DNA of 64,000 nt, taken from the NCBI RefSeq assembly GCF_017348835.2, contig NZ_CP071375.1. One strand, given 5' to 3'. The notes under the pieces are model-generated. The model saw only the letters and a program-made list of their open reading frames with translations, did no database searches and had not been told where the DNA came from. The stretch is from Escherichia coli. GTDB lineage: Bacteria > Pseudomonadota > Gammaproteobacteria > Enterobacterales > Enterobacteriaceae. Every line of letters begins with the position of its first letter. Positions within the stretch are counted from its first letter, which is position 1. A program made the translations under genes and the position numbers. Below are positions 25,567 to 29,590 of this stretch, piece after piece.

Positions 25567-26883
25567 TTAAGACTTCGTCGATTTCTCAAAGCGGCGCAGC
25601 AACTGATTTCCACGCTCAACGGCGGTATCCAGTGCCTGCTGTGGTGTCTTCTTACCGGTCCACACGCTCTCCAGCTCTTCATCCACAATCACGCGGATCT
25701 GCGGCATGTTGCCCAGACGCAGACCTTTGGTGAACGGCAACGGCGGCTTGTTCAGCATCTGACGCGTCGCGGTATCCGCCCCTGGGTTTTTCTCGTAAAA
25801 GCCCTGCTCACGAGTCAGGTCATACGCCGCTTTGGTGATTGGCAGATAACCGGTTTTCTGATGCCACTCGGCAGCATTTTCTGGCTTCGCGAGGAAGTCG
25901 AGGAACTTCGCCACACCTGTATACGTTTCTTTATCTTTGCCCTGCATCACCCACAGGCTGGCTCCGCCGATAATGGCATTTTGTGGCGCATCTTTCGCAT
26001 CAGCGTCGTAAGGCATCATGCCTACGCCGTAGTTAAATTTGGCGTACTCGCGAATGTTGGCAAGAGAACCGGAAGAGGCGGTCGTCATCGCGCAATCACC
26101 GTTATAGAACTTCTCGGTGGATTCATCCTTACGCCCGACGTAGCTGAAATCGCCCTTCTTGTTCATATCTTCGAGCATGGCGATGTGTTTCACCTGCTCC
26201 GGCTTGTTGAACTCCAGCACCGCATCCGTGCCGTCAAAGCCGTTGTTTTTGCTGGCAAACGGCAGACCGTTCCAGGCGCTAAAGTTTTCCAGTTGGATCC
26301 AGCCCTGCCAGCCGCTGGCGTAGCCGCACTTCATTCCGGAGGCTTTCAGTTTTGCAGAATAGTCCGCCAGATCCTGCCAGGTTTTCGGCGGCTGTTCCGG
26401 GTCTAATCCTGCTTTCTTGAAGGCGTCTTTGTTGTAATAGAGAACGGGGGTCGAGCTGTTGAATGGCTGGGAGAGTAAGTGGCCCGTTTTGCTGTCGGAG
26501 TAGTAACCGGAAACCGTCGGCACAAACTGCGACTCATCGAATTGAATCCCCGCCTCTTTAAACACGTCATATACCGGTTTAATGGCATTCGACGCCATCA
26601 TGGTGGCGGTGCCAACTTCATAAACCTGCAAAATAGCCGGAGCATTGCCGGTACGAAATGCGGCAATCCCCGCGCTTAAATTCTGTTCGTAGTTGCCTTT
26701 ATAGGTCGGTACAATTTTGTAATCCGGGTTTTCGGCGTTAAAACGTTGGGCCAGAGAATCCACCTCTTTACCCAGTTCCCCTTCCATAGAATGCCAGAAC
26801 GGAATGGTTGTCACTGCCTGTGCATTCCCCATTAACGCCAGTCCGAGCGCCAGTGCTGAAGCTGTATAATGTAACGGTTTCAT
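25567..26883 (-). CDS. ugpB: sn-glycerol-3-phosphate periplasmic binding protein UgpB
   Basis: 438 aa with signal peptide [23 protein letters not shown]. Confidence 0.93.
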
Positions 26884-27001
26884 CGTTTATCTCTCTTGTT
26901 GTACCGAATGCGCGAATTCACGCGTTTTATGCTCGCGGGGTAACATGAAATGCTCGAATTACAGAAAAATAACTTTTTTGTTACATTTGTAAGATAGTAA
27001 G

Positions 27002-27019
27002 GTGTCAGAAAGATGACAA
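27002..27019 (-). promoter_or_regulatory. Pho box (PhoB binding site) upstream of ugpB
   Basis: Minus-strand TTGTCAT-CTTT-CTGACAC matches Pho box consensus CTGTCAT-N4-CTGTCAC about 120 bp upstream of ugpB start. Confidence 0.6.
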
Positions 27020-27081
27020 GGCGGTGACGGTACGGGTGAGGGAAAATGGGAGAAGGGGCACGGATATCCCGAGAATGCACT

Positions 27082-27113
27082 GAAAAGAGGCGATTAACGG
27101 CCAGCTAATCGCC
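27082..27113 (-). terminator. Intrinsic terminator 3' of the PLDc_N/TPR gene (ggcgatta...taatcgcc stem + U-tract)
   Basis: 8-bp inverted repeat followed on the minus-strand RNA by UCUUUUC. Confidence 0.5.
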
Positions 27114-27242
27114 AGAACTCCTTACCATGAAGAGCAAAAATGGCAGCAAATTCTGCGTCCAGTTTTGCTGCCCGATGAGAGCTACATTTTTCAATTTTAA
27201 CAAAAGATTGCCGCGACACTGGTCTAACGGCAAAGAAGATTT

Positions 27243-27989
27243 TCATTGCACCACACTCTGCTTCAACCATTCATTGGCGGTCTTAATCCATTCCCGGTGG
27301 TGTTTTCTATAATGAGGTCTTGAGCGTTTAGCCGTATCAACTACAGCAACATACTGCTCGTTGGCTTCACGTAACCGACTCATTTTCGCCAACATTTCCG
27401 CATAGTAAATACGCGCCTGCGGGCCGGGGTAATAAGAAATCAATACTTCAAACTCGCTTTCCGCATCAGCGTATTTTTCTTGTGCGGCTAACGTTCTGGC
27501 AAATAACAAATGCCCGTCTGCCGACTGAAAATCAGGGTTATAACGCATCACATCTTCCAGCGTCTGCTGACAGGCGGCGAACTCCTGAATAGCAAACTGT
27601 GCCTGCGCCAGGCTTAGCATCATTGCCGCTTCATGGGCGAATATCCCGCTTAACGCCTGCTGATAATGGGGAACAGCTTCGTGATAACGCCCCAGGCGCG
27701 CCAGTTCATTAGCCAACGCATAATGGTTTTGATTCGTCTCGGCAATCGCCAGTTCTTCGGTTAATTTGCGCAGGTGGCGCTCAGGGTTGAGTTTGTCCTG
27801 CAGGCGCATCAGCAAAGTATGCCCGTGACGGTCAGCGCCCGTTTCAGGCAGCATCACTATGACGAAATACGCCACGCAGCCAATCACCGGAAAACAGAAA
27901 ATGATAAAAATCCAGTACCGCTCTTGTCCGGTACGGTAAGCGTGAATACAGCAAAGCAGTTCAAGCATGACAACAACGGCATAATGCAT
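27243..27989 (-). CDS. Membrane-anchored protein: N-terminal PLDc_N-like two-helix domain + TPR-like repeats
   Basis: 248 aa ORF; N-terminus YWIFIIFCFPVIGCVAYFVIVM resembles the PLDc_N small membrane domain; remainder has TPR-like helical repeats; sits between ugpB and livF. Confidence 0.65.
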   Translation of the reverse strand: MHYAVVVMLELLCCIHAYRTGQERYWIFIIFCFPVIGCVAYFVIVMLPETGADRHGHTLLMRLQDKLNPERHLRKLTEELAIAETNQNHYALANELARLGRYHEAVPHYQQALSGIFAHEAAMMLSLAQAQFAIQEFAACQQTLEDVMRYNPDFQSADGHLLFARTLAAQEKYADAESEFEVLISYYPGPQARIYYAEMLAKMSRLREANEQYVAVVDTAKRSRPHYRKHHREWIKTANEWLKQSVVQ

Positions 27990-28107
27990 GGGAGGGAACC
28001 TTTCCGTGGCAAATAAGTGGTCTGGTTTTAATCCTCCCGGTCAGTTGAAACAAGTCTGTATACGGACGAATAACCCGGCAGAACTTAGCTGCCGGGTTAT
28101 CGATAAT

Positions 28108-28821
28108 TTACCCGCCTAAATACGCACTTCTCACTGCTTCGTTCGCCAGCAGCGCATCGCCGGTATCGGAGAGCACAACATGGCCGTTTTCCAGCACGTA
28201 GCCGCGATCAGCGAGCTTCAGCGCCTGGTTGGCGTTCTGCTCGACGAGGAAGATAGTCATCCCCTGCTCGCGCAGCTGCTCGATGGTGTCGAAAATTTGC
28301 TGGATGATAATCGGCGCAAGACCGAGCGATGGCTCATCAAGCAACAACAAACGCGGGTTGCTCATCAGCGCGCGACCAATCGCCAGCATCTGCTGTTCAC
28401 CGCCGGACATGGTGCCTGCCCGCTGAACACGGCGCTCATGCAGACGCGGGAACAGTTCATACACCCACTTTATGCGCTCCTGGAACTGGTCGCGTTCGGC
28501 AAAGAAGCCGCCCATCGCCAGGTTCTCTTCCACCGTCATCCGCGAGAAGACGCGACGCCCTTCCGGGACAATCGCTACCGCTTCGCGCATGATTTTCGCC
28601 GTCTGCCAGTCGGTAATGTCTTTATCATCAAACACAATTCGCCCGCTGGTGGCGCGTGGATCGCCGCATAATGTGCCAAGCAAGGTGGTTTTCCCCGCCC
28701 CGTTCGCGCCAATGAGGGTGACAATCTCACCCTGATTGATATGCAGGCTCACCTCATGCAGCGCCTGGATTTTGCCGTAGTGGGCGCTGACTTTGTCAAA
28801 GGACAACATGACTTTTTCCAT
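28108..28821 (-). CDS. livF: Branched-chain amino acid ABC transporter ATPase LivF
   Basis: Track ORF to 28833 (GTG); conserved start MEKVMLSFDKVSAHYGKIQALH at 28821. Confidence 0.92.
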   Translation of the reverse strand: MEKVMLSFDKVSAHYGKIQALHEVSLHINQGEIVTLIGANGAGKTTLLGTLCGDPRATSGRIVFDDKDITDWQTAKIMREAVAIVPEGRRVFSRMTVEENLAMGGFFAERDQFQERIKWVYELFPRLHERRVQRAGTMSGGEQQMLAIGRALMSNPRLLLLDEPSLGLAPIIIQQIFDTIEQLREQGMTIFLVEQNANQALKLADRGYVLENGHVVLSDTGDALLANEAVRSAYLGG

Positions 28822-28822
28822 C

Positions 28823-29590
28823 TTATGCCTCACCTAAATAGGCACGGATCACGTCCGGGTTATTACGGATTTGCTCCGGCGTACCGTTTGCCAGCGGCGT
28901 CCCCTGATTGACCACGTAAATTCGGTCCGAAATTCCCATCACCAGCTTCATATCGTGTTCAATCAACAAGATAGTGGTGTTGTGATGATTGCGCAGTTCG
29001 GCAATCAGCTCATCCAGCTCTTTCGTTTCTTTCGGGTTAAGACCTGCCGCAGGTTCGTCGAGCATTAAAATCTCCGGCTGCGTCACCATGCAGCGGGCGA
29101 TCTCCAGACGGCGCTGGTCACCGTAGGCCAGGTTACTCGCCTGACGGTTGGCGTGTTCCAGCAAACCAATGCGCTCAAGCCAGGTGGCGGCGCGGTCGAG
29201 CGCTTCACTTTGGGCGCGACGGAAAGACGGCGTTTTCAACAGGCCTGAGAACAGCCCGGTTTTCAGTTGCTGATGCTGCGCCACCAGCAGGTTTTCAATT
29301 ACTGTCATTTCACGGAACAGACGCACATGCTGGAAGGTACGCACCACGCCCATGCGGGCGATTTGCTGCCCCGGCAAACCCTCCAGATGCTGATCGCGCA
29401 GTAAAATAGTGCCGCCGGTGGGTTTGTAGAATCCGGTCAGGCAGTTGAAGACCGTCGTTTTTCCGGCACCGTTAGGGCCGATTAACGAGACGATCTCCTG
29501 CGGGTACAGTTCGAGATTGACGTTGTTCACCGCCAGCAGGCCGCCGAAGCGCATCATCAGGCCGTTAACAGATAATAATGGCTGACTCAT
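28823..29590 (-). CDS. livG: Branched-chain amino acid ABC transporter ATPase LivG
   Basis: 255 aa, Walker [10 protein letters not shown]. Confidence 0.93.

Follow-up and report, generated by a model that had tools for sequence, protein, structure and literature searches.

Introduction

Cardiolipin synthases of the ClsA type begin with a pair of hydrophobic helices at the extreme N-terminus, separated by a short basic turn and followed by the PLD/HKD catalytic domains. The second hydrophobic region of Cls enzymes carries a conserved motif of unknown role (reviewed in PMC9385802), and the function of the hairpin is unknown in ClsA as well (PMC9385802, PMC4966929). Hairpins of this kind, classified as PLDc_N in Pfam, are also fused to small unrelated domains such as SHOCT (Eberhardt et al. 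2013, PMC3581485). Here we describe a 64,000-nucleotide stretch of Escherichia coli DNA (contig NZ_CP071375.1 of assembly GCF_017348835.2, hereafter the window) in which a gene between ugpB and livF encodes a 248-amino acid (aa) membrane protein that joins a ClsA-type hairpin to a domain of tetratricopeptide repeats (TPRs) in place of the catalytic domains. A sequence-only reading of this DNA had pointed to the gene as a possibly strain-variable one, absent from K-12, with its own terminator and a hinted connection to defence or stress.

Several described proteins attach TPRs to a membrane. LapB (YciM), which is essential, has a single transmembrane (TM) helix followed by nine TPR repeats, ends in a rubredoxin domain and acts as an adaptor on the cytoplasmic face of the inner membrane. 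YfgM, CpoB (YbgF) and LbcA are periplasmic TPR scaffolds whose anchors are a signal peptide, a lipoprotein signal or a single TM helix. MamA, a soluble TPR protein without a membrane hairpin, belongs to the magnetosome gene set.

Results

An intact gene for a small inner-membrane protein

The gene appears in the open reading frame (ORF) list of the window, where it is flanked by ugpB (25567..26883, minus strand) and livF (28108..28821, minus strand), as the sequence-only reading had placed it. Its closest E. coli match is in strain PE164, at 100% identity, and the identical ORF is annotated there in RefSeq as coding sequence (CDS) WP_053883615, labelled only 'tetratricopeptide repeat protein'. 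The N-termini of homologs line up with its start codon. We found no dedicated Pfam or NCBIfam model for the family and no paper in the literature that mentions the gene. The ORF is a real, intact gene of a small inner-membrane protein. Its parts, and the features around it, are listed in Table 1. Architecture, family, distribution, purifying selection and loss history are shown by the analysis; the adaptor role, the membrane orientation and the promoter or liv read-through described below are proposals.

Table 1. Positions in the window of the TPR gene, its protein regions and the surrounding features.
Feature	Positions	Strand	Basis
TPR/PLDc_N-like membrane protein CDS, 248 aa, ATG start	27243..27989	-	ORF list; stop codon 27243-27245
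Two-helix membrane hairpin, residues 3-47	27849..27983	-	Hydropathy, Pfam PLDc_N, hhalign, AlphaFold2
Juxtamembrane region, residues 48-85	27735..27848	-	K/R column counts, pLDDT
Four TPR repeats, residues 86-222	27324..27734	-	
Basic C-terminal capping helix, residues 223-248	27246..27323	-	AlphaFold2 and conservation
50-aa ORF overlapping the TPR stop codon (ATGA)	27094..27246	-	C-terminal 36 residues are a Phd/YefM antitoxin leftover
Terminator-like hairpin	27089..27113	-	Terminator scan; RNA fold -19.5 kcal/mol, z = -3.5
Conserved ugpB upstream region	26884..27066	.	Matched in 5424/5426 genomes
13-bp GC-rich hairpin just after the livF stop	28069..28101	-	RNA fold -22.8 kcal/mol, z = -4.8
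Candidate weak promoter: TTGTTT, 16-nt spacer, TTAAAA	28026..28053	-	Read from sequence; inferred

A ClsA-type hairpin at the N-terminus

The hairpin consists of TM1 (residues 3–18), a basic turn (19–25) and TM2 (26–47). Across the 113 diverse relatives from which all conservation and charge statistics were drawn, mean Kyte-Doolittle hydropathy is 2.3 for TM1 and 2.1 for TM2, and AlphaFold2 places helices at residues 2–20, 25–32 and 34–50. This is the best-conserved part of the protein: H16, W26, P34, G37, Y41 and P48 are near-invariant, each being present in 108–112 of the 113 relatives, and polar Q10 and E45 are common inside the helices. The stretch of the family profile from W26 to Y41 aligns to residues 37–60 of E. 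coli ClsA (hhalign, E 1.4e-5, probability 80%), and the pattern W-x7-P-x2-G-x3-Y occurs on helix 2 of both at identical spacing, with basic residues after TM2 in each. In Pfam, the window protein scores 20.0 bits against PLDc_N (PF13396) with a gathering cut-off of 23.3 (E 6.9e-4), and the match covers residues 26–44 only, corresponding to profile positions 22–40 of 42. PLDc_N matches at E<0.01 are found in 66 of the 113 relatives and two of these exceed the cut-off, namely P0047 (24.5 bits, profile positions 2–40 of 42 and hence both helices) and P0007 (24.7 bits). With two N-terminal hydrophobic helices, a short basic turn and a ClsA-like helix-2 motif, the structural hallmarks of PLDc_N are all present. 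The claim that this is a membrane protein is borne out, and so at the level of the family is that of a PLDc_N-like N-terminus; judged from these profile matches, the assignment looks firmer for the family than for the window protein alone, which is itself sub-threshold.

A PLDc domain was looked for in Pfam and no match was found, and the NCBIfam cardiolipin synthase model TIGR04265 gives just 11.6 bits over residues 22–46 against a cut-off of 290. The protein, short at 248 aa and TPR beyond the N-terminal region, does not belong to the PLD-superfamily enzymes with their two HKD motifs. It resembles the PLDc_N-SHOCT proteins (PMC3581485) in that a PLDc_N hairpin precedes a small helical domain that is not an enzyme, PLD catalytic domains are missing and model organisms rarely have it. 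It differs from them in that a four-repeat TPR domain of ~180 residues takes the place of the ~30-residue SHOCT domain, for which the window protein has no Pfam match.

The linker and the TPR domain

After TM2, residues 54–67 form a basic juxtamembrane helix, which is R/K-rich across the family and H/R in the window protein, followed by a conserved motif (D/N68-P69-x-R71-x-L-R74) and a helix leading into the TPR domain. An AlphaFold2 model built with 27 homologs is all-helical, with a predicted local distance difference test score (pLDDT) of 88 and a predicted template modelling score (pTM) of 0.70. It comprises, in order, two long N-terminal helices, a linker of lower confidence at residues 50–70 (pLDDT 55–72), four helix pairs and a C-terminal helix, with pLDDT exceeding 90 from about residue 70. 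The soluble part, residues 71–248, is compact and contains four TPR repeats, with helix pairs 86–98/102–112, 121–133/137–150, 157–169/173–186 and 191–202/206–222, closed by a capping helix that is modelled in two segments (225–230 and 232–247). Two Pfam TPR models score above their cut-offs (TPR_19, 38.7 bits against 25; TPR_2, 29.9 bits against 27). Together with the repeat solenoid these matches place the domain in the TPR clan, in agreement with the earlier description of this part of the protein as TPR-like.

Outside the hairpin, the residues conserved among the relatives are P69, R74, H160, L161, A164, R165, A176, G189, E191, W234 and A238. H160, R165 and E191 are TPR residues conserved specifically in this family, and the capping helix is marked by H/Y-Y-R-K, W234 (104/113) and A238 (102/113). 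In canonical TPR numbering we take A164, A176 and P188 to occupy structural positions 8, 20 and 32. R165 would fall at position 9 of helix A, which normally faces the ligand groove.

Comparison with the membrane-attached TPR proteins introduced above revealed no close relative. Nothing in NCBIfam scores above threshold, the best match being to the CpoB/YbgF model TIGR02795 (31.5 bits against 90.1), so the protein does not qualify as an equivalog. A relative of solved structure was also sought, and set aside, as sequence matches in the Protein Data Bank are to generic TPRs only. LapB resembles the 248-aa protein in having an N-terminal inner-membrane anchor ahead of a TPR domain, but here there are two TM helices, four repeats and no rubredoxin; the hhalign probability is 59% over generic TPR columns only, and the C-terminal Cys-rich domain is missing. 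Against YfgM, CpoB and LbcA the scores are far below family cut-offs, the anchors are of a different type and the orientation is probably opposite. MamA is 15–18% identical and its magnetosome gene set is absent at the window locus. There is no family relationship to LapB or YfgM, and any likeness to them would be one of working principle only.

A widespread family of constant architecture

A word-indexed search recovered only 41 relatives, and an exhaustive profile search was used for the wider family. The latter gave up to about 685 clusters (50% identity) at E<=1e-30. The best 150 matches are nearly all 231–269 aa long and align almost from end to end, apart from a few that are truncated or N-terminally extended. 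A typical member has ~246 aa, and members are spread over Alpha-, Beta- and Gammaproteobacteria. A genome scan with a 27-sequence alignment found enterobacterial carriers in Escherichia, Citrobacter and Pseudocitrobacter. Other carriers were the Pseudomonas mendocina/alcaligenes group, Lysobacterales, Thiotrichaceae and Steroidobacteraceae, and further ones were Bradyrhizobium, Rhodopseudomonas and Inquilinus.

We also asked whether gene neighbours hint at function. Homologs in Pseudomonas, Exilibacterium and metagenomes have completely different neighbours, and when ORFs were clustered at 80 loci no neighbour family occurred in more than about 10, with those that did representing taxon-local synteny (the ORF caller used for neighbours is simple and picked antisense ORFs in high-GC loci). 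Because the neighbours differ and no neighbour family is widespread, the gene is a stand-alone unit whose neighbours give no clue to its function. Assigning a function from neighbours was rejected on these grounds, both for the contexts inspected and for the 80 loci.

A proposed membrane-tethered adaptor and its orientation

The favoured reading, to which we give about even chances, is a functional accessory gene for a membrane-tethered TPR adaptor that probably faces the cytoplasm. In its favour are the large and constrained family, the purifying selection on the gene, its ancestral position with later losses, the charge and Cys pattern after TM2 and its stand-alone character. The ClsA-type hairpin would fix the protein in the inner membrane, and the TPR groove, lined by family-conserved residues that include R165, H160 and E191, would bind a segment of a putative partner protein encoded at an unlinked site. 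The bound partner would then be held at the membrane surface, most likely on the cytoplasmic face. By analogy, the working principle would be LapB-like if the domain is cytoplasmic and YfgM-like if it is periplasmic.

Several observations weigh against this proposal. The inter-helix turn is itself basic (2.2 K/R and 0.5 D/E on average, a net charge of +1.7 over 7 residues), the N-terminal tail amounts to only 2 uncharged residues, and 81 of the 113 members have an acidic residue at position 49, directly behind TM2. For ClsA-type enzymes that share this hairpin, a TMHMM-based study predicts a periplasmic C-terminal domain (PMC4966929). The nearest weak matches to the TPR part are mostly periplasmic proteins, namely CpoB/YbgF, LbcA (PA4667; E 7e-9) and PorE. 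As for the anchor, the window protein lies under the PLDc_N cut-off and its helix 1 does not align to ClsA. Frequent loss of the gene, and a frameshift in E. albertii, mark it as dispensable. Finally, a partner, ligand, phenotype or expression datum for the protein was sought in the literature and none was found.

Of the competing explanations, a periplasmic orientation carries the most weight. Here the protein would be N-out/C-out, with TM2 serving as a signal anchor that is not cleaved, and its TPR domain would work in the periplasm as an envelope scaffold like YfgM, CpoB/YbgF or LbcA. The charges of the turn, the tail and position 49, the TMHMM prediction and the periplasmic character of the best sub-threshold matches all fit this arrangement, as does the finding of the family only in diderm Proteobacteria. 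What disfavours it is the sequence following TM2, where the next 30 residues contain on average 6.7 K/R and 3.4 D/E. R/K is found at positions 54, 57, 58 and 65 in more than half of the members, and small or hydrophobic residues at 56, 59, 63 and 67 alternate with these basic positions to give a basic amphipathic helix beside the membrane. Such a polybasic helix, 6–18 residues after TM2, disfavours Sec export. Exported proteins in bacteria that contain DsbA tend to have even numbers of cysteines. At least one Cys is present in the soluble domain of 102 of the 113 members, and odd numbers (58) are as common as even ones (55). Because of the polybasic stretch and of Cys numbers free of even bias, the TPR domain is probably, though far from certainly, cytoplasmic rather than periplasmic, and we regard the periplasmic scaffold as possible but the less probable arrangement.

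A possible role of the hairpin beyond anchoring

A second alternative makes the hairpin an active module, which would pair with the ClsA hairpin or target regions rich in cardiolipin or phosphatidylglycerol, and through which the protein would regulate or localise cardiolipin synthesis or a lipid-domain process. The conservation of the hairpin, with its near-invariant positions and polar Q10 and E45, is greater than mere anchoring would require. ClsA enzymes conserve this helix-2 motif too, and there it likewise has no known role (PMC9385802); the alignment to ClsA residues 37–60 shows the common motif directly. However, none of the 80 loci links the gene to cls or to other lipid genes, and the PLDc_N hairpin is generic enough to be fused to SHOCT as well (PMC3581485). 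We think this explanation unlikely. Slightly less likely again is a stronger form, in which the hairpin would act on its own as a sequence-specific membrane module, for example by recognising anionic-lipid domains or pairing with the ClsA hairpin, and would bring a TPR-bound client to such sites.

An ancestral gene repeatedly lost from E. coli

Among 5426 complete E. coli genomes we found the gene in 659 (12%), including O157:H7, O55:H7, O145:H28 and SMS-3-5, and its copies in these carriers are about 94% to 100% identical to that of the window. It is thus neither universal in the species nor, given its RefSeq name, functionally annotated. Among 60 sampled carriers, all have an intact, full-length annotated CDS. 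The O145:H28 strain RM9467-C1 (stretch L093, 1501–2250) has a 750-bp, 249-aa allele of 94.8% identity annotated as 'hypothetical protein'. In strain ECO2947 (NZ_CP046259.1) the gene was matched in two separate places and is possibly interrupted by an insertion.

The site is occupied differently elsewhere. In 107 genomes (2%), such as strain G12, an intact phd-doc toxin-antitoxin pair is found and the TPR gene is absent. K-12 has a 398-bp spacer with sequence resembling repetitive extragenic palindromes (REP-like) and no gene. The TPR, phd-doc and K-12 alleles share the edges of the variable cassette, one right after the livF stop codon and the other at 27066/27067, 183 bp upstream of ugpB. The spacer as a whole (26884–28107) has at least three E. 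coli alleles with identical sharp boundaries, the TPR allele comprising the gene together with the phd remnant described below.

Outside E. coli, the gene is found at the same site in E. whittamii, the cryptic Escherichia clades, E. albertii, Citrobacter and Pseudocitrobacter. The TPR allele and Citrobacter freundii share the livF-proximal spacer as well as the gene, at 70% nucleotide identity over 918 nt. The order in Citrobacter is livF, TPR gene, two unknown ORFs, phd, fic/doc and ugpB. In C. freundii CP055551.1 (stretch L003, 5850–6679) these two ORFs, which lie between the TPR gene and phd-fic/doc, encode 93 aa and 135 aa, belong to no Pfam family and have no counterpart in E. coli. Comparison with other Escherichia species gives synonymous divergence (dS) of 0.13–0.59 for the TPR gene and 0.14–0.53 for the flanking livF and ugpB. 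Because its dS is like that of its flanks and it occupies the same site across genera, it is an ancestral occupant of the livF-ugpB junction in Escherichia and Citrobacter, vertically inherited and repeatedly lost. Recent horizontal gain, which was also considered, was rejected on the same two grounds. About 88% of E. coli genomes, K-12 among them, have lost the gene, with REP-like sequence as in K-12 or the phd-doc pair as in the 107 genomes seen in its stead. The sequence-only reading was right that the gene is missing from K-12 and varies between strains, with the caveat that the variation reflects loss of an ancestral gene and not gain of a new one.

A phd gene has also left a trace in the window. 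The C-terminus of the 50-aa ORF is 39% identical over 36 aa to that of C. freundii Phd (pairwise E 1e-8), and 44 nt of this region are 84% identical to the 3' end of phd in E. coli G12. The ORF has no Pfam or NCBIfam match, and so is no full-length PhdYeFM_antitox protein. No doc/fic toxin gene follows it, the ugpB upstream region beginning immediately. We considered it as a second gene coupled to the TPR gene and rejected this, because it is absent or different in E. whittamii, the cryptic Escherichia clades and E. albertii; it is a remnant of the 3' end of phd. Its position beside the TPR gene is a local coincidence of a hypervariable spacer.

These histories raise the question of whether the E. 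coli gene is simply a relic in decay, now without function, that persists only where deletion has yet to occur. Its absence from so many genomes, the dead phd fragment in the same spacer and the split match in ECO2947 would all suit a relic. So would the ortholog of E. albertii NBRC 107761 (stretch L017, 6001–6743), in which a frameshift leaves 202 aa and a REP-like element follows the gene; this truncation suggests that the gene is decaying independently there. The ratio of nonsynonymous to synonymous divergence (dN/dS) is 0.07–0.19 against other Escherichia species, compared with 0–0.05 for livF and ugpB, and is thus 3–10 times theirs. Yet these values are far below 1 across Escherichia species, every one of the sampled carriers retains the full-length CDS, and the length of the family is constant over three proteobacterial classes. 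Purifying selection on the gene is real but relaxed, and a mere relic is very improbable.

No support for a link to defence

That the protein is part or partner of a defence or toxin-antitoxin locus is largely excluded: the phd remnant overlaps its stop codon, Citrobacter has an intact phd-fic/doc pair some 1 kb downstream of the gene and phd-doc fills the same site in another E. coli allele, but no PADLOC-DB family matches either the TPR protein or the small ORF at E<=1, phage-borne homologs were looked for and none found, plasmid copies are confined to megaplasmids or chromids (Ralstonia, Methylobacterium), homologs in Pseudomonas, Exilibacterium and metagenomes sit among unrelated neighbours, the phd-doc allele lacks the TPR gene altogether and other Escherichia species have the TPR gene without the remnant. 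The hinted association with defence or stress is accordingly not upheld, since neither a PADLOC match, nor copies on phages or mobile plasmids, nor conserved neighbours were found.

Candidate transcription signals in the spacer

The terminator-like hairpin downstream of the gene has a 10-bp stem and a UCUUUUC tail, and is probably the 3' end of the transcript. The sequence-only reading had credited the ORF with its own terminator and had set a lower bound, 27082, that takes in this hairpin. A terminator-like structure is indeed there, but it is found 130 nt after the TPR stop codon and beyond the phd remnant, not directly after the ORF.

On the other side, the hairpin that follows livF is succeeded by a poor U-tract (UUCGUCCGU), and the terminator scan made no call there for want of a T-run. 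This hairpin is specific to the TPR allele, and Citrobacter has a differently sequenced one at the same position. In the phd-doc allele livF is followed by a hairpin and a T-run, and in the K-12 allele by a similar hairpin with only TTT. The livF terminator is common to these two alleles and different from that of the TPR allele. The hairpin in the window may be a leaky terminator of the liv operon and, because it is without a U-run, transcripts of the liv operon may extend into the TPR gene. Transcription might also start at the candidate weak promoter, where the Citrobacter counterpart of TTAAAA is TTAAAT, such that the promoter-like pair is partly conserved; a consensus promoter scan did not report it.

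The start of livF itself varies between gene calls. In the mechanical ORF list for the window it runs to a GTG codon (241 aa, 28108–28833, minus strand), and RefSeq begins it at MEKVM (237 aa, 28108–28821). A similar ambiguity, 243 aa against 237 aa, is seen in some Citrobacter gene calls.

Discussion

The protein combines two known modules, a ClsA-type hairpin and a TPR domain, in an arrangement of which we found no description in the literature. None of the findings will surprise a specialist. They do bring to light a sizeable uncharacterised family of constant architecture, and they show that the conserved second hydrophobic region of ClsA is also found, as a module, in proteins that are not PLD enzymes. 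Being small and non-essential, the protein offers a simple system in which to study the ClsA N-terminal hairpin. The livF-ugpB spacer in turn provides a clear case of a single site with three alternative fillings and sharp common boundaries.

For E. coli, the gene is one chromosomal difference between K-12 and lineages such as O157:H7, O55:H7, O145:H28 and SMS-3-5. Should the hairpin prove to be an autonomous membrane module, which we consider improbable, the protein would regulate or organise cardiolipin-linked membrane biology in a way so far unrecognised, and a gene found in O157:H7 but not in K-12 would be one source of differences in envelope physiology between lineages.

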